A stretch of 64,000 nt of DNA from an uncultured Actinomycetes bacterium (GCA_963831325.1 CAWHQA010000004.1:128069-192068); one strand, 5' to 3'; positions 7,499-64,000 are shown, counted from the stretch's first letter. A program made the numbers and translations. The notes: a model not told the origin generated them from the letters alone.

Positions 7499-7534
7499 TC
7501 CATACTAGATTAGCTGGTGTGTGGGGTTGACCTC

Positions 7535-8860: not shown

Positions 8861-8929
8861 GAGGCAAGTCTCGTCCCTCCCGCGCGGTGGCACAACCGCG
8901 GGTTCCGCAGGGTGGGGCGACGTGCGAAC

Positions 8930-35440: not shown

Positions 35441-35504
35441 CGGGGCACCGTACTCCCGCGGCACGGGCTTGCGGCAAGGCCATCGTTCCTGCGAGGCTCC
35501 GTCT

Positions 35505-37659: not shown

Positions 37660-39192
37660 GTGGGTGCTCGAAGCAACGCTTCCAATGGCAGAAGCGCGAG
37701 CGGGCTTGCTCCCAGCCGACGTCCGCGGAGCGCCCTCGTGGCGACGCTCCTCGTTGCCGTTCTCACCGCCGCGTCAACGACGATTCCGGCCATCGGAGGC
37801 GTAGGGGCTCCCGGTTCCGACGGCATCGGTGACAGCTACTTCCCGTTGTACGGCAACGGCGGCTATGACGTCGAGCACTACGACCTGAATGTCCGGTACT
37901 ACCCGGCCTCCGACCGGCTGGCCGGGGATGCGACGATCACCGCGCAGGCAACCATGGACCTCTCGCGGTTCAACCTCGATCTCGTGGGGCTGCAGATCGC
38001 TTCCCTCACGGTCGATGGCGCCGACGCGACTTGGACGCGCGCCCAACACCACGAGCTCGTCGTCACGCCGCCGGTGATGCTGGCGCAGGACAGCACGTTC
38101 GTCGTGCGTGTCGCCTACGGCGGCGTCCCGAAGCAGTTCAGCGTATCCACCCACGGAGGGGTGGTGCGAACCGACGATGGCGCGCTCTTCATCGGCGAGC
38201 CCGAGTCCGCCGCCGCATGGTTCCCAGTGAACGATCATCCGAAGGACAAGGCGACGTACGACATCGACCTCACCGTGCCCTACCGGCTGAAGGCGATCTC
38301 GAATGGGATCTTCCTCGGCCGGGCTCCGGCGGGCGACGGCCGAACGACGTGGTCGTGGAAGGTGATCGACCCGATGGCGAGCTATCTCGCGACGGCTGCG
38401 ATCGGCCGGTTCCAACTCGATCGCCGCGGCACCGGCAGCGGCATCCGCGTGCTCGACGCCCTTGACCCGCGGGCCCCCAACGAGGCTCGCCTGGCGCTCC
38501 TGAAGGAAGAGCGGGTCGTGCGTTTCCTCGCGAATCAGTTCGGGGGGTATCCCTTCGACGACCTCGGCGGCATCGTTGATCGCCACCGGCTCGGATACGC
38601 GCTCGAGACGCAGACGCGACCCGTGTACGACTCCCGCTTCTTCAAGGGCTTCGTGAACATCCACATCGTCGTGCACGAGCTCGCACACCAGTGGTTCGGT
38701 AACACCGTGTCGGTCGACGACTGGCAGCACATCTGGCTGAACGAAGGCTTCGCGACCTACGCGGAGTGGCTGTGGATCGACGGGAGCGGGCTCGCGACGC
38801 CGCAGGTCCTCTCGAACGCCTGGTGCGACTCCTTCCGCCGGGCCGATCCGTTCTGGAAGGTGCTTCCGGGCGATCCCGGTGCCGACAAGCTGTTCCACCT
38901 CGCGGTGTACGGGCGCGGAGCGATGACATTGCAGGCCTTGCGTAAGGCCGTGGGCTCGGCCGCGTTCTTCGAGACCCTGCGCACCTGGGTCGCGGACCGT
39001 GCAGACGGCACCGGCACCACGGACCAGTTCATCCAGCTCGCCGAGAACATCTCGGGCATGCAGCTCGATGCGCTGTTCGACGAATGGCTCTTCACGCCCG
39101 AGAAGCCGCCGTGCGGCGGAGGCGCGGCCCGTCCGGGTGAGATTGCGCCCGCGATCGCACAGCTCTTGGCCGAGGCACGCCTGCGTCGCTGA
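37660..39192 (+). CDS. M1 family metallopeptidase (aminopeptidase N-like), secreted
   Basis: Intact 510-aa ORF. The N-terminal signal is like LVATLLVAVLTAASTT. The zinc motif is HELAHQWFGNTVSVDDWQHIWLNEGFATY (HExxH-18-E), with an exopeptidase-like LGYALET upstream. Confidence 0.9.
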   Translation: MGARSNASNGRSASGLAPSRRPRSALVATLLVAVLTAASTTIPAIGGVGAPGSDGIGDSYFPLYGNGGYDVEHYDLNVRYYPASDRLAGDATITAQATMDLSRFNLDLVGLQIASLTVDGADATWTRAQHHELVVTPPVMLAQDSTFVVRVAYGGVPKQFSVSTHGGVVRTDDGALFIGEPESAAAWFPVNDHPKDKATYDIDLTVPYRLKAISNGIFLGRAPAGDGRTTWSWKVIDPMASYLATAAIGRFQLDRRGTGSGIRVLDALDPRAPNEARLALLKEERVVRFLANQFGGYPFDDLGGIVDRHRLGYALETQTRPVYDSRFFKGFVNIHIVVHELAHQWFGNTVSVDDWQHIWLNEGFATYAEWLWIDGSGLATPQVLSNAWCDSFRRADPFWKVLPGDPGADKLFHLAVYGRGAMTLQALRKAVGSAAFFETLRTWVADRADGTGTTDQFIQLAENISGMQLDALFDEWLFTPEKPPCGGGAARPGEIAPAIAQLLAEARLRR

Positions 39193-44047: not shown

Positions 44048-44065
44048 GGAGAGGAGGCTGCGTTG

Positions 44066-45379
44066 ATGAGCAAGGTCGCCCGGGATGTCTTCGTCAGCTA
44101 CCGACGTGATGACGCGGGCGGGTATGCGGGACGCCTCGGCGACGCCCTCGCGGATCGGTTCGGAGCCGACCACGTCTTCCTCGATGTGGTCAGCATCGCG
44201 CCCGGTGCCGATTTCGTGGCCGCGATCCGGGAGGCGATCTCGGCGTGCGATGCATTCGTGCCCGTCATCGGACCCGGCTGGGCGGATTCCCGCGATGGTC
44301 GGGGGAACCGCAGCTCGACGACCCGGATGACGTGGTGCGTCTCGAGATCGAGGCGGCACTGGAACTGGACGTCGCGGTCATCCCTGTGCTGGTGGGCGAC
44401 GCGTCGATGCCGACGGCCGACGGGCTCCCACCGGGACTGCTCGGCCTCGCGAAGCGGAACGCCGTGCCGATCAGCAACGCTCGCTGGTCCTCCGACGTGT
44501 CCCGTCTCATCGCGGCGCTCGTGGGCGGGACCAGGACGCAGGACCTGGTGTGGGTTCCGCCACGAGATCTGCAGTACGCCCACCGTGAGGATGCGAGCAT
44601 CGCCTTCGAGGCTTTCGGCCGCGGACCCGTCCTGGTGTATATGCCGAGCTGGGCATCGAACATCGAGTCGAACCACCGGCACGCGCCGTACCACCGCTGG
44701 CTCTCGGATCTTTCGCAGATGTGCCGTCTGATCGTCGTGGATAGTCGCGGACGTGGATGTTCCGACGGGGTCAGCGAGAGTCTCGAGGTTCACGTGGAGG
44801 ATCTCATGGCCGTGCTCGATGCCTCCGGCTCTCCGCGTGCAACCTTGTTCGGCGTCCAGGAGACGAGGTTGATCGCCCTGCTGGCTGCGGCGAGACATCC
44901 CAACGCATCACCCGTCTGGTCCTCTTCGACGCCAGCGCCTCGTACGCTCCGACCGACGACGACGCGTCGTCATGGGTCGACGAAGACTGGGAAACGGCCG
45001 TCCGCACCGAGGACATGTGGGGGACCACGGCCTACACTCATTCCTGGGCCCTGGCTCACACGCCCTCGCTGGTGGGAGATGTGGGCGCTCGAATGGCTGA
45101 CGACCCTCTTCCGCCTCACGTACGGTCCTCAGAGTCTGCACGTGCAGACCCGGATGTTCATGCGGGCCGACGTTCGCGACGCATTGCCTTCGGTCGTGGC
45201 TCCGACGCTCGTGCTTCGGCGCGAGCACGACGCCATCTTCAGCGAGCAAGAGTGCCGGTACGTCGTGGACCGGCTGTCGAAAGCGCCTAGAGGAGCTCTC
45301 AGGTCGAGATGCGATGCCGTGGGCGGGTGACACTCGACCGGTCACCGAGGCGATCGCACGGTTCCTCAAGACCGGCTAG
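44066..45379 (+). CDS. TIR domain + alpha/beta-hydrolase-fold domain fusion (frame-broken)
   Basis: SD GAGGAGG precedes ATG 44066, 18 bp after the upstream stop. The TIR part is DVFVSYRRDDAGGYAGRLGDALADRFGADHVFLDVVSIAPGADFVAAIREAISACDAFVPVIGPGW....DDPDDVVRLEIEAALELDVAVIPVLVGDASMP. The second part, ..LQYAHREDASIAFEAFGRGPVLVYMPSW..LIVVDSRGRGCSDG..ATLFGVQETRLIALLAAARHP.., is collinear with the hydrolase-like module of the 7535 cyclase. The end is ..VTEAIARFLKTG*. The pieces are ORFs 44063.., 44245.., 44757.. and a fourth frame. Confidence 0.8.
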
Positions 45380-45404: not shown

Positions 45405-48400
45405 TCAGTCCGCGATGGCGAACGTGGCGAGCACGCGATCCACGGCCGGCATGAATCTCTCGAAGCTACGACGGTCGGCTGAGAACGCGTTCACGACGAT
45501 GGTGGAGCCGCCCGTTTCCAGGACGATCCATCGGTCGACTCCCCGGGGCCGAGAGCGTTGACAAAGTCGTCAGTCGTGAGAGGTCCGGTCTCGTGTCGTG
45601 CCGACATCGCCAAAGCGTGACGCATCCTCCACAGGTCGGCCATGGGTTTTCGCGCGGCACGGAGACCACCTCGGTGTCGACGGAAACGCCATCGATGTCC
45701 CCGACGCTCATGGGTGTGGGGGAGGTGGTCTCCAGGTCGGGGTGTCTTGCGAGCCATCTCGGCAGATCTTGTGGAAAGGGCAACAGATTCCTTCGCTCGT
45801 CCCAATCCTTGAATGGGTCGAGCCGCGCCCTGGATTGAGGGAGATGAAGCTCAATCCGCTGAAGGGATCGTCGATCGGCTGAAGCTGCACGAGGTACCAA
45901 ACCCAACATCCTTCTCGTCCGGAGCCAGCTCTGCCGTGACGAACCAATCGTCCTCCAGGTCGAAGGAGAACTCCGGGTACGCGTGCTCGAGTGTGTATGT
46001 GCCGGGCGTTACGACACCGTTCGAGACGCGCTCTCCATCGGCATCGACAGCACGACCGGACCGCTCTTCGAAGCGCCTACGAGTCTCCGCTGCGACTCGA
46101 GCCTCAGGGCCCAAGGAATCGGCCAGCCGTCGCCGGGCGAGCGAGATGAGTTCACCGATGCTGCCACAAGCATCGCAACGATCGATCCTGACGGACGTCT
46201 CGTTGGTGCTCACGACCCTGGAGCCGTCGCCGGTGAAGAATGCAATGCGCCCGGTCCACCGCCTCCCCCGAACGAGGCGAGCAAGTCACCGGAGTTCGGG
46301 TCCCACACCCGGGTGGTACCGCCGTCGTCGGTCGTCGCGACCCTCTGACCGTCAGCATCCCACCACACGCTGTTGACCACTCCGTCATGGCCTGGGAGCC
46401 GCCGCAGCAACTCACCTGACTCCGGATCCCACACGCGTGCGACTCCGTCATCCGAGCGTGTGGCCACACGCTCGCCATCAGGCGAGAAGACCATACCCAG
46501 AACCTCACCACCATCCTCGAGGGAGGCGATTCGACGGCCTGCCCGGGCGTGCCACACGATCGCGGTCGAGGCGACGGTTCCCGCGAACCGGCCGTCTGTA
46601 CTGAGGGCGAGGCCGACTCCACCCGATCGGAAGAGGCGGTCGTCGTGCCACAGTTCTTCGCCCGAGCCCGCGTCCCACATGCGGACCGTTCCATCACCCA
46701 CACCCGATGTGAAGACGAGGCCATCCCCACTGATATGGGCTTCCCAGACGCCTCCGAACTCATTCGGCTCGCCATGCCTGTACATGCCGAGTTGCTTCCC
46801 TGTGCATGCATCCCGCAGGCGAGCCTGCCATCGTCGCTCCACGTCAGGGCGCGATCAGAGCTCGCGAAGAAGTCGGCTGCCATGTACGTCTCGTCGTGGC
46901 CACGGAGCTCCGTCACCAACCTTCCGGAAGCCACGTCCCACACACGGCCCGATTCCGTCCAGTCCCTCCAGAGACGAGCAACCGTCCGTCGGTGCTGAGG
47001 GAGGCGGTGGTCAGCGGTGCGCCGGCATCGAGCCGCATGGTCTCGCGTCCGGTATCGGAATCGACAGGTATGCCGCACCATCCCACGTCGATACCGCGAT
47101 CCGCGGACCCGAGGGGTCGGCGGACGCGAACGAGATCTCGCCCTTGACGACCGTCCGTCCGGTCGACACATCCCAGATCCGAGCCGTCCCGTCACGGCCC
47201 CCGGTCACCACGCTGGCGCCATCGGGAGAGAAGCGGGCATCCAGGACCTCGCCCGCATGACCTCGAAGGGTTGCGATCGACGTGCCGTCGTCCGCGTCCC
47301 AGACCCTCGCCGTTCCATCCGTGGCTCGAGGTGACGACAAGGGCTCCGTCGTTGCTGAACGAAGCGGTACCGATTTCACCCTGGTGTCCTCGGAGGACGG
47401 CGGGCTGCCGTCCAGCCCGGGCGTCCCACACCCTCGCCGTCTCATCCTCCCCGGCGGTGACGACGGAGCGACCGTCGGGGGAGAACGTAGCCTCGACGAT
47501 AGGCGTGGCTCCCGGGTCGAGATCTGCCAGGAGGCGTCCCGATGCTGGCTGCCCAGATCTTCGCAGTCCCATCCTCGCTGGCGGTCGCTATCCGCGATCC
47601 GTCGGGGGAGTAAGAGGCGCTGTACAGGCCGTCGACGTGTCCTTCCAACACGCTGATCGTCCGACCGCTCTTCGCATCCCACAAGCGAGCTGTGTCGTCA
47701 TCACTTGCCGTCACGATGGTCGTGCCTCTAGGATCGAAGTCCACGTCGTAGATCGGCCGGGAATGTCCACGGAACACGCCCACCAACCGGCAGGTCGAAG
47801 GATCCCATGTTCTCGCGATGCCGTCTTCCCCGGCGGTGACGACGCGAGCGCCGGACGCATCGAACGTCGCATCGTGCACCGCCCCACCGCCGTGACGCAA
47901 CGTGCAGACTTCGTCGCCACTGTCTGCATCCCACACGATAGCGGTGCCATCGAAGCTCGCGGTCACGGCCAGCGAGCCGTCGGGGGAGTAGTCGACGGAT
48001 TCGATGATGTCGTCATGTCCAGACAGCACGACCGGTGCTCGCGAGCTCGCCGTGTCCCACAAGCGGGCGGTTCCGTCTGTACTCCCGGTAAGGATCCTCC
48101 GCCGACTGGGCTGTATCGAACGGAGACGATCGCAGCCTCGTGTCCGCGCAGGGTTCGCCGAACCCTCGAGGTCTCCAACGATCGCCGGAGCGCATCGACT
48201 GCCTCGGCGGTCTGGGCACTCGCCATGGCTTCGGTCGCTAGCACGAGCGACCGTTCGGGGTCGACGGCGAGCTGACCCATGGCCGAGGCGGCGAGTTCCC
48301 TCGATCGTGAGTGGGCCGCTTGCTCTCGCGCCTCGCCCCGTTGCACGAGCGCGAACGCGCTGAGCGCGAGCGAGACGACGAGTGCCGCGGCCACCGCGGC

Positions 48401-49036
48401 GATGGCGCCGCGCTGACGCCGGGTGGCGGCCGACCTGGATGCCTGCACGTACCGTGCCTGCGCGGGGGTGGCCCTCGGCTCCGACCCCGATGCCACGACC
48501 GCCTCGGCTTCGGCGATCTCCGCGCCCCGCAGCAACAGGGCCTTCGTGTCGTCCTTCCGTTCCCACTCGCCGGCCTGCACCCCGAGCTTCGTGTGTGCTC
48601 GTACGTGCTCGAGGTCGGTCCGAAGTGCCTCCACCGCTCGGTCCACCGCGCCGCCGAGGGCTCCGTCGGTGGCATCGATCCAGTTGAGCGCCGCGAGCGG
48701 CCCCGGCACCGATGCGGCATCGGTGGATCGCACCATGACCGGCACGATCCGCTTACCCGCCCCCCGGGCGAGCTCGAGCTCCTCCGCACAGACCTTCGAG
48801 TTCGCGAGGGAGGGGGAGACGACGACCAGGTAACCGTCGGAGGACTCGATCGCCGATCCGATCTCGGCCATCCACTCGGCCGAGGGTGGGATGTCCTCGA
48901 GGTCCACCCACGCCTTCAGCCCTCGTGCGTCGAGGCCCGCCACGATTGCTACCACGGCCTCCCGGTCGGCGCGGGAGTAGGAGACGAACACGTCGTGGGG
49001 CTGGGTGGACTCGCTCGACTCGGCAGCGCTCAACAC
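45405..49036 (-). CDS. TIR + single TM helix + WD40 beta-propeller array + C-terminal domain, paralog 1 (heavily frame-broken)
   Basis: GTG 49036 overlaps the stop of paralog 2 (GTGTTGA). The TIR part is HDVFVSYSRADREAVVAIVAGLDARGLKAWVDLEDIPPSAEWM..SKVCAEELELA... The linker is HVRAHTKLGVQAGEWERKDDTKALLLRG. The TM helix is AIAAVAAALVVSLALSAFALV. WD40 blades (..TGSTDGTARLWD.., ..TASFDGTAIVWD.., ..TAGEDGIARTWD.., etc.) are spread over ORFs 47963.., 47442.., 47192.., 47011.., 46210... After ..IDRCDACGSIGELISLARRRL comes a ~250-aa C-terminal domain ending ..AVDRVLATFAIAD* (stop at 45405). Confidence 0.8.
48330..49036 (-). repeat. Conserved ~0.7-kb 5' module (TIR + linker + TM), copy in paralog 1
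   Basis: Long runs are identical or near-identical in DNA and protein to 51154..51882 and 54548..55275. Similarity stops right after the TM helix (..ALVQRG). Confidence 0.8.
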
Positions 49037-51882
49037 GTGGCTCGATACTGCGCGAAGGGGATGAGGTCTTTCCACTCGGCCTCGGTGAGGTTCCTGCCGG
49101 CCGCCGAGCACAAGTGCTCGGCGAGGAGTTCGACGTCGTCGGACCACGCGACCGACGGGAGCACCAAGATGCTTCCGTCGTCGCTGGCCGCCACCAAGCT
49201 CGTTCCCTCGGGATCGAACGCGAGTGAGTTCACCCAATCGCGTTGCTCTGGCAGTCGGTCCCCGATGACCTCGCCGGTGCTCGCCTCGAACAGCGCGACT
49301 TCGCCCGCGACCGTGCCTGCGGCGAGCACGTTTCCATCGGGGCTGAACGCCACGCTCTGCACACCGTCGCCCAGTGTGAGCTCGAATTCCGGCTCGCGGC
49401 TCTCGACGCTCAGCACGACCACGTCGCCACGGAAGTTGCCGATCGCCAGTCGTTCGCCGCTCGGATCGAAGGCCATGGCGTACACCGCACTCCGCTGCTT
49501 CAGCACGGGTTCGCCCACGACACTTCCATCGGAGGGGTCGCGGAACACCACCGTGCCGTTGAGGCTGCTCGTGGCCAGGATCGAGCCATCGGGGCTGAAG
49601 GCGAGCGCGTAGATGAATCCCTTCTGACCAGGCACCAGCTCGCCGATCGGTTCGCCGCTCTCGGCGTTCCAGAGCTGCACATCGCCTTCGAGGCTGCCGG
49701 TCGCGACGGTCGAGCCGTCGGGGCTTATCGCCACGCCCGTGAGGAACGGCCCAGGCGCCTGAGTGGGCTCGAGGATCTCGAGCGCCAGCGAGTTCCATCG
49801 GCGCAGATCGCTTTGGAATGCGGCTGGGTCGAGCGCGGTACCGACCAATGTCTCGCCGTCGGGGGAGTAGGCCACGCCGTACGCGCCCTGTTCGTCGAAC
49901 GTTGCGATCGCCTCGAGCGTCCCGGTATCCCAGACGGTCACCCTTCCGGTCGTGACACCACCCCCGTCGAGGTACTCGATGGGATAGGTCGAGGCGAAAC
50001 TCTCGCCGTCGGGGTGGAAGGTCACCACGTTGACCGGCCCGCCGCCGCCCGCGAGCCGGTGCTTCACATCCCACACCACGACGGTGCTGTCGGAGCTCCC
50101 TGAGATCACCGAGCCGCCGTCGGGCGTGAACGCTAGGCCGTTGACCCAATCGGTGTGAGCGCGCAGCGGCTGGCTCACCTGCTCCCCTGTGTCGACGTCC
50201 CAGAGGCGCACCGTGGTATCCGCGCTTCCCGACGCAAGCGTTCGCCCGTCAGGGGAGAACGCGACGTCGTACGCGGCGTCATCGTGGCCTTGCAACTGCC
50301 AGAGCCGTTCTCCTGTCCCCAGATCGAATACGAGGACCTCGCCCGTCGCGGCCTGAGAGCGACGCGCGAGCGTGGCGACGGCCACCGACCGTCCGTCGGG
50401 GCTGACGTCGAGTCCCCACGCTTCCTCGGCCGACAGCTCGAACGTCGAAACCTTCTGGCCGGTCTTCAGGTCCCACGACGACATCAGCCCGCCTTCGGTG
50501 CTCGCGATGATGTCGTCGTTGTTGCCCGCGAACGCGAGTCCCCATACGGGCTGACGACCCACGCGGATCGGTGCGCGCATGATCGGGGTTCCGGAACCAG
50601 CGTTCCACGCGTGCACCGTTCCCTCACTGGTGCCGCCGAGAACGATCCGTCCGTCGAGTGAGAACGCGACGGATGTCACGTCACCGTCGTCGACGGGAAG
50701 CGGTTCACCGATCGCCTCGCCGGTAGTCGGATCCCACAGGTCCACGCTCCCGTCAGTCCCACCGGAGGCCAGCGTGCCGTCGGCGGCAAACGCCATGGAG
50801 AACACCGAACGGTCGTCGGCATCGATAGATTCCCCGGTCGGTTTACCGCTCTCGGCGGACCAGATCGAGATCTGGCCGTCGTTGTCGCTCGCGGCGATGA
50901 TCGACCCATCAGGTGCAACCGCCGCCGAGTTCACGCCGTTCGGCCCTCGCAGCGTGTGCTCGATCCAGATCGAACGCTGCGCAGCGACGTGCAATGCATC
51001 GAGTGCCTCGGGCGTTGGCGCGGTGCGGTAGGCCTCGAGGGCGAGCAGCATGCCAACGTCGAGCCGATCGTCCATGCTCAGGAGCGCCTCGGAGGCGAGT
51101 GCCCGTGAGTTGGCGACCTGGGTCTGCGACTCCGCACGGTCACGTTGCTCGACCGCCTCGCCCCGCTGCACCAGCGCGAACGCGCTGAGCGCGAGCGAAA
51201 CGACGAGCGCCGCGGCCACCGCTCCGATCGCAGAGCGCTGTCGCCGGGTGGCGGCCGCCCTGGACGCCTGCACGTACCGTGCCTGGGCCGGGGTGGCCCT
51301 CGGCTCCGAACCTGAGGCCACGACCGCTTCGGCCTCGACGATCTCCCCGCCCCGCAGCAACAGGGCCTTCGTGTCGTCCTTTCGCTCCCACTCGGCGGCT
51401 CGCACCCCGAGCTTGGTGTGTGCACGAACGTGGTCCAGGTCGGTCCGTAGCGCCTCCACCGCTCGGTCCAACGCACCGTCGAGGGCTCCGTCGGTGGCAT
51501 CGATCCAGTTGAGCGCCGCGAGCGCCCCGGGCACTGAGCCCGGATCGGTGGGGCGCACCATGACCGGCACGATCCGCTTGCCGGCCCTCCGAGCGAGTTC
51601 GAGCTCTTCGCCACAGACCTCGGAGCTCACGAGGGACGGGGAGACCGCGACCAGATAGCCGTCAGAGGCCTCTATCGCGGCTCGGATCTCGGCCATCCAT
51701 TCCGCCGAGGGCGGGATGTCCTCCAGATCTACCCACGCCTTGAGGCTCTTTGCCTCGAGACCCGCCACCAGCGCCACCACTGCCTCCCGGTCTGTGCGGG
51801 AGTAGGAAACGAACACGTCATGGCCCTGGGCAGGCTCGCTCGATCTGGCCTGCGCGGGCACACGCGGCTCGGTTTCGGTCAC
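49030..51882 (-). CDS. TIR + single TM helix + ~14-blade WD40 array, paralog 2 (intact)
   Basis: Intact 950-aa ORF. SD GGGAGG precedes GTG 51882. The TIR domain is about aa 21-140 (HDVFVSYSRTDREAVVALVAGLEAKSLKAWVDLEDIPPSAEWMAEIRAAIEASDGYLVAVSPSLVSSEVCGEELELARRAGKRIVPVMV). The TM helix is aa 218-238 (AIGAVAAALVVSLALSAFALV), preceded by RRQR. About 14 blades follow, of the type ..SPDGxxLAxGSxDxTVxLWD... There is no P-loop between the TIR domain and the repeats. Confidence 0.9.
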   Translation of the reverse strand: MTETEPRVPAQARSSEPAQGHDVFVSYSRTDREAVVALVAGLEAKSLKAWVDLEDIPPSAEWMAEIRAAIEASDGYLVAVSPSLVSSEVCGEELELARRAGKRIVPVMVRPTDPGSVPGALAALNWIDATDGALDGALDRAVEALRTDLDHVRAHTKLGVRAAEWERKDDTKALLLRGGEIVEAEAVVASGSEPRATPAQARYVQASRAAATRRQRSAIGAVAAALVVSLALSAFALVQRGEAVEQRDRAESQTQVANSRALASEALLSMDDRLDVGMLLALEAYRTAPTPEALDALHVAAQRSIWIEHTLRGPNGVNSAAVAPDGSIIAASDNDGQISIWSAESGKPTGESIDADDRSVFSMAFAADGTLASGGTDGSVDLWDPTTGEAIGEPLPVDDGDVTSVAFSLDGRIVLGGTSEGTVHAWNAGSGTPIMRAPIRVGRQPVWGLAFAGNNDDIIASTEGGLMSSWDLKTGQKVSTFELSAEEAWGLDVSPDGRSVAVATLARRSQAATGEVLVFDLGTGERLWQLQGHDDAAYDVAFSPDGRTLASGSADTTVRLWDVDTGEQVSQPLRAHTDWVNGLAFTPDGGSVISGSSDSTVVVWDVKHRLAGGGGPVNVVTFHPDGESFASTYPIEYLDGGGVTTGRVTVWDTGTLEAIATFDEQGAYGVAYSPDGETLVGTALDPAAFQSDLRRWNSLALEILEPTQAPGPFLTGVAISPDGSTVATGSLEGDVQLWNAESGEPIGELVPGQKGFIYALAFSPDGSILATSSLNGTVVFRDPSDGSVVGEPVLKQRSAVYAMAFDPSGERLAIGNFRGDVVVLSVESREPEFELTLGDGVQSVAFSPDGNVLAAGTVAGEVALFEASTGEVIGDRLPEQRDWVNSLAFDPEGTSLVAASDDGSILVLPSVAWSDDVELLAEHLCSAAGRNLTEAEWKDLIPFAQYRATC
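51154..51882 (-). repeat. Conserved ~0.7-kb 5' module (TIR + linker + TM), copy in paralog 2
   Basis: See 48330..49036. The similarity to paralog 3 extends about 25 nt upstream of the start codon (CTAGGCTCC.GG.CGGGAGGTTCCTCGTG). Confidence 0.8.
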
Positions 51883-52017
51883 GAGGAACCTCCCGCCGGG
51901 AGCCTAGTTCATGACCTAGGTCTGGCGATAGCGTGCTTGAGGGGACTCAGGAAGTCTCGAAAGCGACAGGATCGGCGAGTCCAAGTCGGCATCCCCCCGG
52001 TATGCGACGACCCCGGA

Positions 52018-55000
52018 TCAGGGGGTCCAGCCCACACGCTCCCACTGGTGGGCGGCGAGCGCCTGGACCCAGCCCTCGTTCGAGAGCTCGTCCCCGCAGC
52101 CGGGCAGCTCGATCGACTCGGGGGCGACGAAACGGACGGCCGAGGGACCGTCTGGCACTAGCCGTCCGGAGAACGAGTACCCGACGCACTTCGGGGGACC
52201 CGCGCTCGTGTGATGAGCGTGACCCTTTCCCCCGATCGCTCGATCGAGCCGCTCCAGTCGTCCAGGTCGCCGTTCGACGACCGCACGTGATATCGCCAGG
52301 TGTCACCCTCGAAGTACCAGGTGTAGACGCCCGCAAGCCATCGATGGTCGTTCGGTCCGAACGGTGGGCTCGGGAAATCCTCACGCTCGAGCTCGACGCG
52401 GAAGGCGCCCTCGGGAACCGGTGACTCCGGAAGGGCCGACGGTTCGGACGAGGCCGGACTAGCACGCGTGTCGGGGCACCGATCGACGTGGAGGTACTGC
52501 CGGCACTCGACCTCCGTGAGGTCGCGCGAGAGCCTCGAACGGGCGAGGGCGACGAGCTCGTCAACTTCGAGGGTGAACACGCGGAGCGTGCCATCTTCGC
52601 TCGCCGTGGCGAGCTCGGATCCATCGGGACTGAAGGCGATGCCCCAGATCGGTGCCGTGTGTCCTCGGAGCGCCAGGAGCTCCTCGCCGGTCTCTGCGTC
52701 CCAGACGTAGGCGATCCCGTCACCGCCTCCGGTCGCGAGCTGCGAGCCGTCAGGGCTGAACGCCACCGACTGGACGAACCCGACTCCCCCCATGGAGGCG
52801 AGCTCTCGACCCGAGGCGCTCAGTACAGTTGCGCCGTCTCCGCCGGCCGTGGCGATCCTCGAGCCATCCGGGCTGAAGGTGACCGAGCTCGCGAGCCCTC
52901 CACCCGACTGCACACGCGTGAGCTCCTCTCCCGATGATGTATCCCACACATAGAGCGTGGCCAGGCCGCTCAGGCCCGCGAGCAGATCTCCGTGCGGCGC
53001 GAACGCCACATCCACCATGCTGTCTCGCGCGTTGCTTGGCTCGCCGAGCGTATGCATGGTCCGGCCAGTAGCTGCGTCGAACACGGCAGCGGTACCGAGC
53101 TGCCCGGCAACGGCCACCCGAGTACCATCCCCCGATAACGCCATGGCGTTCGGCCAGTTCTCGTCGTCGCCATGGGTCGGGAAATGACTCACCACCGACC
53201 CATCGTCCGTCTGCACGATCTGGACGTCATCCTTCGGCGTGAGGAACGCCATGGTGCTGCCCCCGGGACCGAACGTCCCGTTGCGGAACCCGTCTAGGTA
53301 GCCGCGGACGAGCTCTCCCGTTTCGATGTCCCACAACCAGCCGCGCCCATACCACTCCGTCGTGAGCAGCGAGTTCCCGTCTGGGTGATACGCGAGATCG
53401 TTGAGGCCGGCGGGCTCCTCGATGCCGAGACGCTCGGCCGTCCCCGCCCGTGAGACGTCCCAGACCCGGGCTGTCCCGTCGGTCCCGCCGGTGAGGAGCT
53501 GGGTCCCATCGGGGCTGAACGACACGAGCGCGATCAGCCCCCGGTGTCCCGGGAGTGCGAGCACCTCCTCGCCGGTCTCGGCGTCGAAGACGCGGGCCAC
53601 ACCATCGCTACCCCCTGTGGCGACCAGGTCGCCGTCTGAGCTCCAGTCGACACCGATCACGTTCCCGGGACTCAGGATCCGCACCTCGGGCACGCGATCG
53701 AACCCGCCCTCGATACGAAGGTCCCAAACATTCACGCCTCCTTCGTCCGAGGTCACGAGCCGGGTCCCATCGGGGCTGAACGACATCTCCTGTGGGCAGA
53801 CGGCATCCAGCGACAGCACCTCCCGACCGGTACGCGCGTCGAGGATCACGGTCCGGTCGCGCGCGTTGGCGATCCTGGTGCCGTCAGGGCTCATGAGGGG
53901 TGTCGTGCACATCCCCCAGGGCTGATCGACTCGGAGGGTCTCGGCGCCGCTGTCGACATCGACCACCCGCACGACGCCACCCACGACGTTCCCGTCGGGA
54001 CCCGTGGGCAGCTCCCCGATCACGACCCGTTCACCGTCGTGCGCGAAGCGAGCTCCGGCGAGGATCCCGTCTTCAGCCTGCGGGATCACGGCCTGCACAT
54101 CGCCGGTGGCGACGTCCCAGATGCGGACACCGTCCTGTTCCTCATCGGAGACGCTCACGATCTGGGAGGCGTCGGGGCTGAACGCCACGTAGTTGAGGTC
54201 CGAGGTGTGACCCGAGAGTCGCTGCACCTCCGCACCCGTCTGCGCGTCCCACAGGATGGCGTCGACCCCCTCCTTTCCGCCGGCCGTTCCGCCCGTGAGC
54301 AGGAGCCGCCCGTCGGGACTCCACGCCACGTTCCCGGTGGAGGGATCGACGATGGTCAGGAGCTCACGGTCGGCCTCCACCGCATCATGCAGCGCCTGTT
54401 CCGCCTCGGGGAGGACGGCCTCATCGTCCCGCGTCGCGTCCACCGCTGCCAGAGCCAGGAGGATGCTGAGCTGCGGATCTACCGAGAGGTTCGCGGTCGA
54501 GGCGGCCGCGAGCTCTCGAGCCGTCGCCACGCGCGTCTGGCGTTCGGCCCGACCACGCTGGACGAGTGCGATCGCGCTCAAAGCCAGCGAGACGACGAGC
54601 GCCGCAGCCACCGCCCCGATCGCAGCACGTTGACGCCGGGTGGCGGCCGAGCGCGACGCCTGCACGAACCGAGCCTGGGCAGGGGTCGCCCTCGGATCCG
54701 AACCCGAGGCCACGACCGCTTCGGCCTCGGCGATTTCCCCTCCCCGCAGCAACAGCGCCTTCGTCTCGTCCTTCCGTTCCCACTCGGTGGCCCGCACCCC
54801 GAGCTTCGTGTGTGCCCGGACGTGGTCGAGGTCGGTCCGAAGGGCCTCCACGACCTGGTCCACCCGGTGGTCGAGCGCGCCGTCGGTGGCATCGATCCAG
54901 TTGAGCGCCGCCAGGGTCGTGGGCACCGAGCCTGGATCGGTGGGGCGCACCATGACCGGCACGATCCGCTTACCGGCCTCGCGCGCGAGTTCGAGCTCTT

Positions 55001-55275
55001 CGGCACAGACCTGCGAGCTCGCGAGGGAAGGGGAGACCACCACCAGGTAGCCGTCGGAGGCCTCGATCGCGGCTCTGAATCTCGGCCATCCACTCGGCCG
55101 ATGGCGGGATGTCCTCGAGATCCACCCACGCCTTGAGTCCCCGTGCGTCGAGTCCCGCGACCAGCGCCACCACGACCTCCCGGTCCGCGCGGGAGTAGGA
55201 GACGAACACGTCGTGGGGCTGGGCAGGCTCGCTCGACTCGGCCTGCGCGGGCATGCGCGGCTCGGTCTCGGTCAC
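52018..55275 (-). CDS. TIR + single TM helix + WD40 array + distinct C-terminal domain, paralog 3 (two frame breaks)
   Basis: GTG 55275 starts MTETEPRMPAQAESSEPAQPHDVFVSYSRADREVVVALVAGLDARGLKAWVDLEDIPPSAEWMAEI. A 1-nt insertion near 55080 shifts the frame into ORF 52158..55043 (..VVSPSLASSQVCAEELELAREAGKRIVPVMV.., TM AIGAVAAALVVSLALSAIALV, WD40 blades, ..HVDRCPD..). A second shift near 52190 extends the C-terminus to ..CVGYSFSGRLVPDGPSAVRFVAPESIELPGCGDELSNEGWVQALAAHQWERVGWTP* (stop at 52018). Confidence 0.85.
54548..55275 (-). repeat. Conserved ~0.7-kb 5' module (TIR + linker + TM), copy in paralog 3
   Basis: See 48330..49036. Confidence 0.8.
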
Positions 55276-55485
55276 GAGGAACCTCCCGGCCGGAGCCTAG
55301 CCCACGGAAATGTCCTGCACGAACGCCAGGTGGGGCCGCGCTCGGCGTCCGCGGCCGAGTGAGTCCTCTAGTCCCCTCGAATTCGGTGGCTCCTTGGTCA
55401 GCTGTTGACTGATCAGGATGCCATCGCCCTGGAGGCCTTGGCTCATGAGACCATTCGTAGGCTTCACCCGCCCGCGCGGGGCGCC

Positions 55486-55515
55486 TTGACTTGGCCAACG
55501 CCGCGGGAGTAGACA
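55486..55515 (+). promoter_or_regulatory. Possible sigma-70-type promoter for the PD40 gene
   Basis: TTGACT (55486-55491), an 18-nt spacer, then TAGACA (55510-55515), about 40 bp upstream of ATG 55553. This is pattern match only. Confidence 0.25.
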
Positions 55516-55552
55516 TCGCTGCAATCCGGCATCAGCCGCGAATGGGGGAGCT

Positions 55553-56463
55553 ATGAGGCGGACATGGATCGGGGTCGCTGCTCTGACCGCGCTGGTTCTG
55601 GTAGCGCAACCGGCGGCGGCGACCTTCCCCGGGGGCAACGGCAAGATCGCCTACTTCGATTACACCGGTGAACCACTCCACATCTACTCGATCGATCCGG
55701 ACGGTTCAGGACGGATACAGCTCACCTCAGGCTCGATGGCTAATCAGTACCCGGCGTGGTCGGCCGACGGCGCCACGATCGCGTATGTCCGCTCACGCGG
55801 GATCGAGACGGGCCGTCATTCCATCCTCACGATGAACGCTGACGGCACAGGCGACACCGTCCTGTTCCGCGCGAAAGACAACCGGAAGGAGATCCTCGAT
55901 CCGGCGTGGTCCCCGGACGGCACCCAGATCGTGTTCTGCGCCGAAGGGCGTCAACCACCTGCGCTCTTCGTCATCGACGCCGACGGGACCGGCCTGACGA
56001 AGCTCACGCGCGGACGACACTTCGACTGCCACCCGTCGTGGTCCCCGGACGGCAGCACGATCGCGTTCGCGACGATCAGGGGACGGCACTTCTCGATCGC
56101 GACCATGGCCACCGACGGGTCGAACAGGACGCTGTTGGTCCGCCGTGGGTCGAATGACGTGCCCGATTGGTCGCCTGACGGATCCCAGCTGGTGTTCTTC
56201 CGGGTGCACGGGCGCCGCAGCGACGTCTTCATCATCGATGCGGACGGCACCGGGCGAACCCAGTGACCCATTCGACGAAACGGTGGGAATGGACACCGAC
56301 AGTCTCGCCCGATGGCCAGCGGATCGCGTTCGGACGAGGACAGGGCCGGACGATCTTGCACGATGCCGACATCTACTCGATGGCGACGGACGGCACCGAC
56401 GTTCAGCGGCTCACGAGCACGGATCGTTTCGACGAGATCTGGCTCACCTGGCAACCCACGTAG
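55553..56463 (+). CDS. Secreted TolB-like / PD40 beta-propeller repeat protein (one frame break near 56260)
   Basis: The signal peptide is MRRTWIGVAALTALVLVAQPAAA. Then comes TFPGGNGKIAYF. Blades include WSADGATIAY, WSPDGTQIVF, WSPDGSTIAF and WSPDGSQLVF. It continues in ORF 56263..56463 (VSPDGQRIAF...DIYSMATDGTDVQRLT..). It is a paralog of 32255..33196. Confidence 0.8.
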
Positions 56464-56499
56464 GCCTGGCCACGATCGTCCTGCCGTCCTCGGCATTGG

Positions 56500-59400
56500 T
56501 CATCGCCCGATCTCGATGGTTCCGATGATGGGTCGGAGTGCCGCGAGGGTCCGCTCGAGTCCCTCGCGCGACTCCGCGCGGATCATCACGAGCACGATGC
56601 CCTCCTCGGTCTCGATCTCGATCCATCGCTGTTCGTCGCCACGTGAGACGCCGACGAACAGGTCGTGGGCAAGTGGACCCATTCGGTTCGTGACCGTGAT
56701 CGGCATGATCGGCAGGCAGTCGGTGCACATCGGGGGCAGGTTCTGCTGCTGTACCGAAGCGACGCGAAGATCGATAGCCGTTCCAGCAGCTCCGCCGAGC
56801 GTGGTGTCTTCGACCCGGCGTAGATCCAGGTGCGGATGATCGTCGACCCACGCGGCGAGGTCGTCGGGGAATGGGACGATGTTGCGACGCTCGTCCCATT
56901 CCTTCCATCCGTCGAAGACGCGCCCGGGTTCGAGGTGGACGAAGAAGATGTTCACGGCCGCATCGTCGGCCTTCGAGAGCAGGACCGAGGTCGCAGTCTG
57001 TGCTTCGCCTTCGTTGGCCCAGCCGATATCGGTCGTGGCGATCCATCCTTCGGGAACGCTGAAGGACAGGCTTGGAGCGAACCGGTGGCCGAGTAGGCGC
57101 CGGCTGGGAGCGGTCCGTCGCTGTATGTCCTCGCCATGCACGTCGACCAGTCCTGCCGGCCTCGATGCATCGTCGGTGGCAGGCTCCGAAGCTGTTCCCA
57201 GGAACGCGCTCTCTTCGGCGGCTGTCAGACCCCGCGTGGTCCGCTCTTCCGCGAGCTGAAGGAGTTCCTCCACGGGCACGCAGGCGTCGCAGCGATCGAC
57301 CCGAACGCCGTTCGCATCGTTGGTCACGATGGTGCGATCTCCAGCGACGAAGAAGGCCATCGTGGCGCCGTAGGCGGCATCGAAGGAGGCGACCAGCTCA
57401 CCCGACACAGGGTTCCAGATGCGTGTCGAGCCCCCGTCCTCGGCGGCGACCACCCATCGGCCGTCGTGACTGAACCTGGCATCCACCGAGCTCTCTTCGC
57501 TCTGCATCGTCGAGAGGACGCGACCCGTCCGCGCGTCCCATACCCGCACCGGTCCGTCATCGCTGCGGGTGACGACCATCCGCCCGTCCGGGGAGAAGCG
57601 TGCGTTCTGGATCAGGTCGGGGGCATCCAACGAGGCGACGACGCTGCCGTCATCGACATCGACGATCCTGGTCTGGCCGGACACGATCGCGAGCAGGTCC
57701 GCGTCCGGGCTGAAGTTGACCGACATCCCAACGGTCCCACTCCAGAGATCCTCGATCGACCACCGCTCTTCCGCGGAAGCCGCATCCCACATCCGGACGA
57801 CGCCATCGCCGCTGCCGGCGGTCACGACGTTGAGAGCATCCGCGCTGAGGGTTGCATCCCAGATGCCGCCACTCTCGGCGTTGCCGTGTTCGAAGGACGC
57901 CGTTTCCCTGCCGGTGACGGGATCCCAGAGCCTCGCCGTGCCGTCGTCGGAGAACGTGAGCGCGCGATCTCCGACCGGGACCGGGACGGGGACGGTGAAT
58001 CCCGGTCGATGACCGACCAGTTCCTCGATCTGCTCGCCGGACTCGATATCCCACACGTGTGCGACGCCGTCGAACCCTGCGGACGTCACGAGTGACCCGT
58101 CCGGCGAGACGGCGGCACCGATCTGGAGTTGACCGGCATCGACGTTGATGAGTTCGTCCCCGACTCGGCATCGATCACGATGACCCGACCCCCCATCGTG
58201 ACCACGGCGACCTGGGTGCCATCCGGGCTCTGCGTCATCCAGAAGACCTTCGTATCGAGCACGGTTCGCCCGGAGCTCGGTTCCCAGATCCGAGTCGTCC
58301 CGTCCTGCCCACCCGAGGCAACGAACGTTCCGTCGGGAGAGAAGCGCGCGTCAAGGACGGCGCCGTCGTGGCCGCTGGAGCACGGCGAGGGGGGAGCCGC
58401 TCTCTGCATCCCAGACACGCACGGTGCCGTCCTCGCCGGTGGTCACGACCTGGGATCCGTCGAGGCTGAACGCGATCGTGTTGAGGCCACCTTGATGCCC
58501 GCGAAGGACGAGCGTACGACCGGTCCCTCCGTTGACGATCCGAGCGGTTCCATCTTCGCTGGCGACACCGATCGATCTGCCGTCGGGGCTGAACAGGGCG
58601 TCGACGACAGCTCCGTTCATGCCGCCGACCTCTCGCAGCAACCTTCCCGACCGGGCGTCCCAGAGCTTCACGGTCGCATCCTCGCCAGCGGTCAGGATCC
58701 GCCGGGCATCGGGCGAGAAGCGGGAGACGTAGAGACCATCGGTGTGACCCTTCAGCGTATGGGCGAGGTCCTCACGGCGTAGGTCCCAAACCTTCGCGGT
58801 GTCGTCGTCGCTCGCTGAGGCGGCCAACGAACCGTCGGATCTTACGCTCACGTCATAGACGGGGCGATCGTGCGTGCCAAGGGTCGTGAGGCGCTCGCCG
58901 GTCTCGGCGTCCCACGCGAGCACGTTCCCATCACCGTCTCCGGTGATGACCGTCTCGCCATCGGGAGTCAGCTCGGCATCGAAGATGCCACCTCCGGTAC
59001 CGAGGAACGTGGCCACTTCCCTCCCCGAGTCCGTCTCCCAGATCTTGGCCGTCCCGTCGTAGCTGGTGGTGAGGACGCGGCTGCCATCCGAGCTGAAGCT
59101 TGCCGCGGCGATGAGATCCGTGTGTCCTGCGAGGACGAGCGGGTCCGACCGGATGCGAGATCCTGTATCCGAGCCGTGCCGTCGTAGCTGGCGGTGAGCA
59201 ATCGATCGCCGTCGGGCGAGTACTGGACGACCGATACAGGACCGTCGTGTTCGGTGAATGAGGAACGCACCCGCGACTCATCGATCGATTGCCGCATGGA
59301 GTCGACGGCTTCGGGGGTCTGTTCCACCTTCAGCGCTTCGGAGGCGAGCAGGAGCGAAAGTTCAGGATCGGTTTCTAATTGGTCGATGGCTGCCGACGCC

Positions 59401-60229
59401 AGCTCCCGAGAGCGGGATTCAGCGGCTCGTGCGACCGCCTCCTGCTCGTTCCTCACCGCTGAGCCACGTTGGATCCACGCTGCCAGACCGAGGGTCGCAG
59501 CCACGAGGGCGACGCAGACCGCGATCGCGATACCGGTACGTTGGCGACGACCCGATGCCTTGCGGGAAGCGAGTACGAATCGGGTCTGCAGTTCCGTCGG
59601 CCTCGGTTCCCGATCGGCTGAGGCGAGCGTCGCTTCCGCCCCCTCGAGGTCTCGACCTCGAAGCAGCAACGAGCCATCCTCCCCCTTCGCCTTCCATTCC
59701 GACGCCTTCACGGTGAGGCGGGTGTGAGCTTTGACGTGGTCGAGGTCGGTCTCGAGGGCTTCAACGATGTCATCGCAGGCGCTTTCGAGCGAAGTCGAGT
59801 CGATCGCATCGATCCAGTTGAGTTCGGCCAGGAACGTCGGGACGGACTCCGGATCGGTTCGTCGGATCGCCACGGGGACGATCCGTTTGCCTGCCGAACG
59901 GGCGTGCTCCAACTCCTGGGCGCAGACCTTCGAATGAGCGAGATCTGGGAGAGACCACGACCAGGTACCCATTAGCTGAGAGCGATCGCGGCTTCGATGG
60001 TGGCCATCCAGGCAGCGGATGGCGGGATGTCCTCAAGGTCGACCCAGGCTCGCTTCCCGCGGGCGGCGAGGCCTTCAACTATCCGTCGAACGACCTCCCG
60101 ATCGGCCCGGGAATAGGAGATGAAGACATCATGGGTGGCGGTCCGTGGGTCGTTCGCACCCTCAGACGGAGCGATGGGCCGAATGTCCTTCGCCAACGGT
60201 CCCGCTTTCTCCCGCTCTACCCATCGCAC
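56500..60229 (-). CDS. TIR + single TM helix + WD40 array + C-terminal domain, paralog 4 (divergent; heavily frame-broken)
   Basis: ORFs 59972..60229 (..THDVFISYSRADREVVRRIVEGLAARGKRAWVDLEDIPPSAAWMATIEAAI), 58968..59972 (..SKVCAQELEHARSAGKRIVPVAI.., HVKAHTRLTVKASEWKAKGEDGSLLLRG, TM IAIAVCVALVAATLGLAAWI), 58351..59016, 58086..58418 and 56500..58089 (WD40 blades) form one gene. After ..VDRCDACVPVEELLQLAEE comes a C-terminal domain homologous to that of paralog 1. Confidence 0.8.
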
Positions 60230-62946: not shown

Positions 62947-64000
62947 CTAGACGCCGAAGGGCCGCCTCCGGGCGGCCTTTCGCATGTCCGGCCCTAGGCG
63001 TGTCCGAGCTCCTCGAGCGGAGCCCGTCACCGCAAGCCGGTTCGAGATCGCTGCCAGCAGCGTCGTCGAGATGCGAGGGCCTTCGTTGATGATGCGCAGG
63101 AAGTCCTCACCCGGGATGCGGAACAACGTCGTGTCGCTGGCCGCGGTCACGGTGGCCGTTCGGGGACGCTTCTCGAGTAGGCCGATCTCGCCGAAGTAGT
63201 CGCCCTCGCCGAGCGTGGCGACGACGCGTGTCGCATCGCCTTCGTCCACGCTCACCTCGACCTGACCGGTCACCACGGCGAAGAGGTCGTCGGGCTCGTC
63301 GCCTTCAGCGATCACGACGGCGCCGGCCGGAACCTGTTCCTCGGTGCCGGCGGCCGCCAATGCTTCGAGCTGCGACGCGGTGGCGGCTTCGAAGATCCCG
63401 AGCCGCTCGAGCAACGCGACCCGCGGCGCGAGCTCGGACGCACGGGCCGCGGCGCGGGCGTCGAGCCGCCGTGCCATGGGAAGCATCGCGACCGTGAGCA
63501 CGAGCAACACGCCGCCCGCGAGCGCAGTGGCGACCCCGAGACCGAACAGGTCGATCGTGATCGGGGCGGCGAGCGACCCGAGAGCCGTGCCCCCCACCGT
63601 CGCGGCGCCGAGGATGCCGAACACGCTTCCGAGACGTTCCTCGGGCACGACCCGCTGCAAGGTGGTGGTGCTGACGACGTCGGCGATGATTACCGCGGCG
63701 CCCTCGATCGTGAGCAGCAGGTACGCGGCGACGGGCGCATGCACGACCGAGAGCACCGTGAGCGGGATGCCCGCGACCAGCACCGAGAAGACGAGGATGC
63801 CGGACGTGTGGCTGCGCGAGGCGAGCTTGCCGGCGCTGGCCGTGGCGAGGATGCCGCCGATGCCCGGCGCCGCGAACAGCAGGCCCGTCGCGTCGAGGTC
63901 GAAGCCGAGGAAGTCCTCGGTGATCGGGCCGAACAAGCACGATCTCCTGCCCGAACGTGAACCCGAACGCGATCGAGAGGCCGACGAGCAGCATGGCCTC
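62947..64000 (-). CDS. MFS-type transporter fused to a C-terminal cyclic-nucleotide-binding domain (N-terminus beyond window; frame break near 63940)
   Basis: ORF 62947..63936 gives TM helices (..ILVFSVLVAGIPLTVLSVV.., ..AYLLLTIEGAAVIIADVV..). The cNMP-binding fold follows: IFEAATASQLEALAAAGTEEQVPAGAVVIAEGDEPDDLFAVVTGQVEV..GDYFGEIGLLEKRPRTATV. It has the same architecture as 33716..35440. Confidence 0.75.
   Translation of the reverse strand, partial: RPCCSSASRSRSGSRSGRRSCLFGPITEDFLGFDLDATGLLFAAPGIGGILATASAGKLASRSHTSGILVFSVLVAGIPLTVLSVVHAPVAAYLLLTIEGAAVIIADVVSTTTLQRVVPEERLGSVFGILGAATVGGTALGSLAAPITIDLFGLGVATALAGGVLLVLTVAMLPMARRLDARAAARASELAPRVALLERLGIFEAATASQLEALAAAGTEEQVPAGAVVIAEGDEPDDLFAVVTGQVEVSVDEGDATRVVATLGEGDYFGEIGLLEKRPRTATVTAASDTTLFRIPGEDFLRIINEGPRISTTLLAAISNRLAVTGSARGARTRLGPDMRKAARRRPFGV
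62957..62980. terminator. GC-rich hairpin between convergent genes (bidirectional terminator candidate)
   Basis: AAGGGCCGCC-TCCG-GGCGGCCTTT is a 10-bp stem including one G-U pair, with a T-run on the plus side. It lies 23 bp after the repeat-protein stop and overlaps the last codons of the minus-strand gene. Confidence 0.6.

Follow-up and report, generated by a model that had tools for sequence, protein, structure and literature searches.

What does a bacterium do with a protein that carries a TIR domain at one end, WD40 repeats at the other, and a hydrophobic helix in between? The question is raised by four neighbouring genes in a 64,000-nucleotide stretch of DNA from an uncultured Actinomycetes bacterium (GCA_963831325.1 CAWHQA010000004.1:128069-192068). 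This whole stretch, at its full length, is called the window here, and all positions are counted from its first letter. That the organism belongs to the Actinomycetota agrees with its acetyl/propionyl-CoA carboxylase, which is 85-92% identical to proteins labelled 'MAG: Actinomycetota bacterium'. The reading we favour, with moderate confidence, is that the four proteins are stand-alone receptors that cross the membrane once, sense outside the cell and switch on an NAD+-cleaving TIR enzyme (NADase) inside it, and that the frame breaks seen in three of the genes are errors. Public databases already list proteins of this kind, under the names 'TIR domain-containing protein' or 'WD40 repeat protein'. 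A literature search of incomplete coverage found no description of a membrane-spanning TIR-TM-WD40 architecture (TM, transmembrane helix) or of its topology. What we rate as new here is a type of TIR-effector/repeat-sensor conflict protein with a membrane helix in place of the NTPase switch.

The four genes share one plan. With the intact copy (copy 2) as the tblastn query, four paralogs are found between 45.4 and 60.2 kb, all on the minus strand, and the heads of the other three start at about 49024, 55275 and 60190. The TIR box DVF[VI]SYSR.D is present in all four translations, as is the motif S.VC..E (SEVCGEEL, SKVCAEEL, SQVCAEEL and SKVCAQEL). All four also keep the linker motif HV[RK]AHT[KR]L..EW...LLLRG and an RRQR cluster followed by an apolar helix of 21-22 residues. 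Cores of the 'xFSPDGxxLA' type in copy 2 (VAPDGS, FAADGT, FSLDGR, ... FDPEGT) give 14 blades. An earlier description, made by a model from the DNA alone (the sequence-only reading), had named four minus-strand paralogs of this kind, the three motifs with a helix of about 21 residues, and about 14 blades; tblastn, Pfam and the translations bear out each of these statements, and the 14 blades are further matched by the model strands at residues 307-909 and by the best fold match, a 14-blade propeller.

Only copy 2 occupies a single frame in the sequence as given (49030-51882, 950 aa), while the bodies of copies 1, 3 and 4 are spread over two to four reading frames. Copy 1 has a GTG start at 49036, 1 base past the copy 2 stop codon. 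An alignment of the DNA of the four 5′ ends shows a ribosome-binding region common to copies 2 and 3. Copy 3 carries a 1-nt insertion near 55090, within the TIR domain, and then an open frame of 1,037 codons that runs to a stop at 52158-52160; the end at 52018 given in the sequence-only reading would require one further frame change.

The head of the protein is a TIR domain that has kept the residues of an enzyme. Residues 23-132 of copy 2 match Pfam TIR_2 (PF13676) at E 1e-23, with 84.5 bits against a cut-off of 28. S87, C90 and E93 are invariant in two alignments of relatives (A2, 22 sequences; A3, 50 sequences), and E93 aligns with the Glu of 'WCWDELEQA', the WCxxEL motif of the Cat1 TIR. 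From this conserved catalytic-type Glu, the TIR heads are probably of the enzymatic, NAD-cleaving type. A sequence profile of the TIR domain matches TLR1, TLR2, TLR6 and Hydra TRR-2 (E ~1e-8 to 2e-13), and sequence matches to Cat1, AbTIR, SARM1 and TIR-SAVED are found as well.

Between the head and the repeats there is no NTPase module of a recognised kind. Pfam matches many WD40 propeller families over about 310-910 of copy 2 and no P-loop, NACHT, NB-ARC or AAA family anywhere in it, and NCBIfam and PADLOC likewise return no NTPase. Residues 133-305, where a STAND NTPase would sit, are helices in the structure model, the membrane segment among them. These results agree with the earlier statement that the proteins lack a P-loop/NACHT module and are not the usual TIR-STAND-WD40 proteins. 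The linker helices of the model lie at 134-146, 149-167 and 179-189. H155, W165 and LLRG are kept in the aligned relatives, and the linker matches no Pfam family at E<=1. Some relatives carry three, five or seven tandem TIR-linker units (P0130, P0158 and P0181) ahead of a single membrane helix and propellers; such built-in TIR multimers could bear on how TIR domains are activated.

We infer that the TIR domain is cytoplasmic and that the propellers are extracytoplasmic (N-in/C-out), and five lines of evidence point this way. First, one strong hydrophobic segment occurs at about residues 200-237 in every one of 100 full-length relatives (median length 22 residues, mean Kyte-Doolittle ~1.9-3.0), with a second, weaker segment further on in four of them. 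Second, the 15 residues on the N side of the segment, facing the TIR domain, hold on average 4.8 lysines or arginines and 0.6 aspartates or glutamates (net +4.25), as compared to 3.2 and 2.1 (net +1.1) in the 15 residues on the C side; the N-side flank has more lysine and arginine in 78 of the 100. Third, copy 2 was modelled with AlphaFold2 on an alignment of 50 relatives; the model has a mean predicted local distance difference test score (pLDDT) of 91.6 and a predicted template modelling score (pTM) of 0.75. It runs from the TIR fold through the three linker helices, an uninterrupted helix at 198-269 that encloses the membrane segment, two short stalk helices and the strands at 307-909 to two C-terminal helices. 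The sequence-only reading had proposed modelling this intact copy, and the parts that it described are all found in the model. Fourth, in relatives with three to seven TIR domains in tandem the number of hydrophobic segments remains one, and this segment lies within a linker match that comes after the TIR domains.

The fifth and strongest line is a relative, P0017, that shares 60% identity with copy 2 across the TIR domain, linker and membrane helix. Where propellers normally stand, it has a first membrane helix, a dCache_1 domain (residues 258-479, E 8e-21), a second membrane helix and a terminal RRIARRSRR. Domains of the dCache_1 type typically act as extracytoplasmic sensors and are bounded by a membrane helix on either side. 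In other relatives the membrane helix is followed by unrelated domains of 260-340 residues. Together these suggest that the position past the membrane helix is a swappable slot for a sensor outside the cytoplasm. The TIR-inside, propellers-outside arrangement of the sequence-only reading, which had cited the positive-inside rule, thus gains support as an inference from the segment count, the flank charges, the tandem-TIR relatives and P0017.

Several points weigh against our reading. The charge bias is only moderate, as the C-side flank too carries lysine and arginine. PF00400-type WD40 repeats are classically found in the cytoplasm, and we know of no characterised secreted WD40 propeller of the same branch. 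The PADLOC defence models return nothing beyond generic TIR similarity. The density of frame breaks is also a difficulty, and it is taken up with the breaks themselves.

A soluble coiled coil was considered for the hydrophobic helix and rejected: its 21-22 residues in a row are all apolar and uncharged, what is conserved is their character and not their sequence, and P0017 shows a two-helix Cache topology. A profile search with the membrane helix and stalk (alignment A4) for other cytoplasmic heads returned two fragments only.

The four copies differ mainly in what would be exposed outside the cell. Once the TIR frameshift of copy 3 is repaired, its identity to copy 2 is 88% up to where the membrane helix ends (238 aligned residues, counted from the N-terminus), 52% over the next 70 residues (the stalk) and 30% in the propellers. 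The head of copy 1 is 74% identical to that of copy 2, and the blades about 25-33%. A drop in identity just past the membrane helix, tandem copies and fast-changing propellers form the pattern expected of a receptor repertoire, and the four copies would serve as a small repertoire of specificities. The C-terminal tails differ as well, and none has a Pfam match. Among the four, only copy 2 ends in the usual family tail, C..AGRNLT..EW...Y..TC. Copies 1 and 4 have in common a non-WD40 tail of about 130 residues ('WDERRN..PFP.DL..W...HP.L...'; 45405-45950 and 56500-56900, minus strand), and the tail of copy 3 is different again from both. When the tail of copy 4 is compared with its ortholog on a related metagenome contig, L080, substitutions show no third-position bias (37/31/43 at codon positions 1, 2 and 3). 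The tail shared by copies 1 and 4 may be fast-evolving, misaligned or non-coding.

Table 1. Positions of the array genes, the parts of copy 2 and the adjoining genes in the window.
Feature	Position	Strand	Basis
Copy 1	45405..49036	-	Propeller part over at least three frame changes; tblastn frames -1, -3, -1, -2
Copy 2: TIR, helical linker, one membrane helix, two 7-bladed WD40 propellers, C-terminal tail	49030..51882	-	ORF (open reading frame), Pfam, AlphaFold2
Copy 2 TIR domain, residues 23-132; catalytic-type Glu E93 at 51604-51606	51487..51816	-	Pfam TIR_2, alignments
Copy 2 helical linker, residues 134-189, HVRAHTKL..EW..LLLRG	51316..51483	-	Model helices, conservation
Copy 2 predicted membrane helix, residues 217-238, SAIGAVAAALVVSLALSAFALV, RRQR before it	51169..51234	-	Hydropathy, flank charges, model
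Copy 2 two WD40 propellers, residues 307-909, 14 blades, predicted extracytoplasmic	49156..50964	-	Pfam, model strands, fold match
Copy 3	52018..55275	-	DNA alignment of 5′ ends, frame map, identity by region
Copy 4	56500..60229	-	blastn, gap list, codon-position substitutions, dN/dS against the ortholog on contig L080
Zn-ribbon / class III nucleotidyl cyclase / AAA_16 ATPase, 1,113 aa	40706..44047	+	Pfam; NCBIfam and PADLOC PycC-like cyclase matches
Fifth TIR gene, TIR-α/β-hydrolase fusion, outside the family	44063..45330	+	Three-frame reading, about four frame changes
PD40 (TolB/Tricorn-like) propeller fragment, between copies 3 and 4	55553..56446	+	Pfam PD40 E 1e-21, codon-usage frame path

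The array is an ordinary, error-laden example of its family, and it is the family that is of interest. The sequence-only reading had left an impression of rarity, which the searches dispel. A phmmer query with residues 135-315 of copy 2 (linker and membrane helix) against 1.84 billion cluster representatives matched 5,206 of them at E<=1e-3 and 2,167 at E<=1e-10, in many phyla. The best 150 matches are mostly proteins of 900-1,000 aa with the matched stretch at about residues 120-300. A TIR domain matching that of copy 2 is found in 178 of 191 relatives that were fetched. A scan of one genome per species confirmed at least 475 relatives among the 600 pattern matches listed, and the best 79 loci were taken for the analysis of neighbourhoods. 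These come from Actinomycetota (Solirubrobacterales, Gaiellaceae, Microthrixaceae, Mycolicibacterium), Chloroflexota (many Anaerolineae), Cyanobacteria (Nostoc, Leptolyngbya), Proteobacteria (Thauera, Variovorax, Pseudorhodoferax, Accumulibacter), Verrucomicrobiota, Acidobacteriota and others. Their family genes are mostly intact and encode 900-1,200 aa. Members occur in cultured strains of Nostoc, Tolypothrix (on a plasmid), Thauera, Variovorax, Pseudorhodoferax and Mycolicibacterium, which provides many candidates that can be tested.

Tandem arrays recur in the family. Six copies are found on a cyanobacterial contig (L072), three each at L033, L080 and L081, and two at several other loci. 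The Tolypothrix sp. PCC 7712 member (L082 5995-9210, NZ_CP063798.1), which RefSeq labels only as 'TIR domain-containing protein', is encoded on a 31-kb mobilizable plasmid. It has about 17 near-identical blades, and this suggests very recent blade amplification. The gene is preceded by a cyclase fragment and adjoins a VapC toxin gene and ParA/ParG. On L081, a related 355-kb contig, the three-copy array (4740-8502) lies directly downstream of NB-ARC-TPR and TIR-NB-ARC STAND genes and a Tricorn/PD40 protein gene, surroundings that look like an immune-type gene island.

If the proteins are sensors, the next question is what they signal to. All-against-all clustering of the ORFs around the 79 related loci gave no conserved partner family; it returned antisense shadow ORFs and the generic families of ABC transporters (17 loci) and hybrid histidine kinases (10 loci). 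The sequence-only reading had placed a SLOG-bearing protein next to the array and suggested several ThsB-like sensors feeding one effector. Neither part is supported. Pfam found no SLOG/LOG family in the flanking ORFs that were scanned, which were not every ORF of the window, and a six-frame search found no instance of the LOG-type motif G[GA].G[TS]..E. The neighbours are the cyclase-AAA_16 gene, the TIR-hydrolase gene and the PD40 fragment. With no partner gene conserved, the simplest output would be that the receptor itself depletes NAD+.

The mechanism that we propose follows the order of the chain. About 215 residues, the TIR domain with its catalytic-type Glu and the three-helix linker, would lie in the cytoplasm, and the propellers would stand outside the cytoplasmic membrane, in the zone of the actinobacterial cell wall. 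There they would bind a ligand, which may be a phage part, a product of a competitor, a fragment of the envelope or wall, or a marker of kin or non-kin. Binding would cluster or re-orient the receptors through the continuous helix and so assemble the TIR domains. The assembled domains would cleave NAD+, leading to growth arrest or abortive infection. The idea of activation by induced proximity is borrowed from the TIR NADases that are activated by oligomerisation. Known TIR NADases (SARM1, AbTir, Cat1, the plant TIR receptors and the TIR effectors of CBASS and Pycsar) are inactive as monomers and active when brought together, so an extracytoplasmic ligand that clusters the propellers would be expected to start NAD+ cleavage.

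The array proteins share features with four kinds of known protein. With the oligomerisation-activated TIR NADases (SARM1, AbTir, Cat1, TIR-SAVED, TIR-STING, ThsB) they share the TIR fold and the S..(W/V)C..E motif. Those enzymes are soluble proteins that respond to ligands or nucleotides in the cytoplasm, whereas the putative trigger domain of the array proteins lies across a membrane, and the array has no SAVED, STING, SAM or ThsA partner. With the bacterial TIR-STAND-WD40/TPR proteins (TIR-NLR-like and Avs-like proteins, and WRAP proteins such as Npun_R6612, PDB 2YMU) they share an N-terminal TIR domain and C-terminal blades that belong to one branch; in both, paralogs occur in tandem, the propellers change fast and the genomic surroundings are immune-like. 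By sequence as well as by fold the best match is 2YMU, a double propeller of 14 blades, and the double 7-bladed propellers of Apaf-1 and Pwp2 are also among the best fold matches. The difference is that the array proteins lack the NTPase switch; a linker and membrane helix take its place and would put sensor and effector on opposite sides of the membrane.

The actinobacterial Ser/Thr receptor kinases offer the closest parallel in layout. PknD is a kinase-TM-NHL propeller protein and PknB a kinase-TM-PASTA protein. Like these, the array proteins are predicted to have an enzyme head at the N-terminus in the cytoplasm, a single membrane helix, and a C-terminal sensor outside, which in the kinases too may be a β-propeller. 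The head of the array proteins is a TIR domain and not a kinase, and the output would be NAD+ cleavage in place of phosphorylation. We take PknD, with a TIR domain replacing the kinase, to be the nearest known parallel. The WD40 domain of PkwA, a kinase-WD40 protein (5YZV), is among the sequence matches.

The likeness to Toll-like and IL-1 receptors, an outside sensor, one membrane helix and an inside TIR domain, is one of logic only. The array proteins are reversed in polarity, with an N-terminal TIR domain, no signal peptide and a membrane helix that would serve as the signal anchor. Their sensor is a WD40 double propeller and not a leucine-rich repeat (LRR) or immunoglobulin domain, and the type I LRR topology is absent. 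The TIR domains of Toll-like receptors act as adaptor scaffolds. Those of the array keep the catalytic-type Glu, a position at which Hydra TRR-2 has Thr. Nothing suggests common descent of the whole architecture. The sequence-only reading had drawn the comparison with this reversal of polarity in view, and as an analogy it is a fair one.

A wider claim can be made only tentatively, and we think it less probable than our reading of the array itself. It is that the relatives in many phyla form one family of outside-in innate immune receptors, in which an ectodomain (a double propeller, or in some members a dCache or other domain) senses a phage, competitor or non-kin cue at the cell envelope and a single helix switches a TIR NADase without an NTPase. 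Nearly all characterised bacterial TIR systems sense intracellular events. If the claim is true, bacterial immunity or kin recognition would come to include sensing at the cell surface. It would also provide a prokaryotic counterpart of Toll-like-receptor logic, in the form of paralog repertoires with conserved heads and diversified ectodomains, and would mean that the design of repeat sensor, one membrane helix and TIR domain arose in bacteria too, independently alongside Toll-like receptors. The dCache and other ectodomains of the relatives suggest that the head is a general signalling module, which would make chimeric receptors with known ligands practical.

Among the alternatives, the one that survives best keeps the membrane receptors and gives them ordinary signalling to do, in recognition between cells or kin, envelope stress or development. 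The TIR domain would then produce a nucleotide signal or serve as a scaffold, and it may be connected to cyclic-nucleotide machinery. The family is common in filamentous or multicellular lineages (Anaerolineae, Nostocales, actinomycetes, Microthrixaceae), as this explanation would have it, and the window is unusually rich in cyclase genes and genes for proteins that bind cyclic nucleoside monophosphates (cNMPs). A cyclase-AAA_16 gene flanks the array from beyond the fifth TIR gene, its ortholog directly adjoins the array in L080, and there is the cyclase fragment ahead of the Tolypothrix plasmid member. These three cases hint at a cyclase link, which we rejected as a general rule: a cyclase is nearby in just 2 of the 79 loci. 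The invariant catalytic-type Glu favours TIR domains that are enzymes. Divergent ectodomains on conserved heads, tandem arrays, and a plasmid location next to a toxin-antitoxin gene are features seen more typically in conflict systems. On balance we consider ordinary signalling unlikely, and prefer receptors that switch on a TIR NADase.

A different kind of doubt concerns the genes themselves. Copies 1, 3 and 4 could be real, recently inactivated pseudogenes, and the array a decaying remnant, which would fit the rapid gain and loss of genes described for propellers of this branch. The sequence-only reading had counted copy 2 as the only intact copy and had raised the worry that the others were pseudogenes. 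The count stands for the sequence as given. What it implies about the organism is another matter, and here the rest of the window is informative. A frameshift splits the gene sdhA (succinate dehydrogenase flavoprotein; 1281-3000, minus strand), which lies within an sdhCDAB-like operon at the left end of the window: the N-terminal FAD-binding half is in one frame and the remainder in another. A paralog of the cyclase-AAA_16 gene (19500-21350, plus strand), 30-43% identical to it, runs over three frames, and a periplasmic-binding-protein gene is truncated. These breaks outside the array point to indel errors in the assembly itself.

Copy 4 and its ortholog on L080 are 89% identical in DNA by blastn. 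All gaps within the gene are exactly 1 nt, and one lies in a run of five Gs. In the window, the frame of copy 4 changes at about 59982, 59950, 59148, 58376 and 58161, with a further pair of indels at 57120 and 57084. Over the part that can be followed, copy 4 of the window shifts at five indels and L080 at two others, with no frame change shared, and in each block between indels exactly one frame is open in both. Indels of 1 nt that each break one contig only look like consensus errors. Substitutions at codon positions 1, 2 and 3 number 61, 57 and 190. Over 989 codons the nonsynonymous rate (dN) is 0.059, the synonymous rate (dS) 0.29 and their ratio (dN/dS) 0.20. This ratio, together with the third-position bias, indicates that copy 4 evolved as a protein-coding gene until very recently.

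The points that speak for decay are these. The density of frameshifts is uneven, with three ORFs of about 3 kb intact near the array and about four breaks in the 1.3 kb of the fifth TIR gene. The copies are split in L080 and L081 too, and on L081 all three family copies are split while the housekeeping genes appear intact. Many truly disrupted propellers have been reported in the same WD40 branch, the WRAP type (PMC9218822), and some of the breaks here may be real. Set against these are the broken sdhA and cyclase paralog, the single-nucleotide gaps of copy 4 and its signature of selection, and the relatives in the 79 reference loci, which are mostly intact. Judged from sequence comparison, errors of the metagenome assembly are the probable cause of the frame breaks in copies 1, 3 and 4. 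Genuine inactivation of at least some copies has a low, though not negligible, probability, and we regard an array that is simply a decaying remnant as improbable. The earlier worry is in this way partly resolved, in that errors appear likelier than decay. Two further methods helped little in placing the breaks. A frame plot from GC content at third codon positions (GC3) was too noisy at about 75% GC3, and a Viterbi path from codon usage switches frame throughout the window and serves as a pointer only.

The least probable alternative is a split system like Thoeris, in which the TIR heads make a signal of the cyclic ADP-ribose type, or a related one, for a separate effector (a SLOG protein, the TIR-hydrolase or the cyclase-AAA_16 protein being candidates): it can draw on the clustering of several TIR proteins in the window and on a weak similarity to ThsB (PADLOC ThsB1, E 2e-4; in relatives, Pfam ThsB_TIR). 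Against it stand matches far under family level (NCBIfam Thoeris_type3_ThcB4 scores 19 bits where the cut-off is 220), the lack of a SLOG or ThsA-like protein in the window by the searches of flanking ORFs and of the six-frame motif, and the lack of any conserved partner in the 79 loci.

The genes next to the receptor array may have a story of their own. The fifth TIR gene, when its frames are stitched together, encodes a protein with TIR_2 at residues 8-145 and Abhydrolase_1 at 187-311 by Pfam. It starts 16 nt downstream of the cyclase-AAA_16 gene and looks co-transcribed with it. The cyclase with its STAND-like ATPase and the TIR-hydrolase may form a separate conflict module.

Further to the left, between the cyclic-nucleotide genes and the TIR region, lie genes for a DUF1028 protein with a C-terminal TPR (36200-37102, minus strand) and an M1 aminopeptidase (37660-39192), with no evident link to the array. 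The cyclic-nucleotide genes of the window (7535-8893, 10886-13867, 33716-36046 and 62947-63936) encode an α/β-hydrolase-cyclase, a HEAT-repeat/TLC-MFS (major facilitator superfamily) transporter-like protein with a cNMP-binding domain, and two MFS-cNMP-binding proteins, the second of which is apparently truncated at the window edge.

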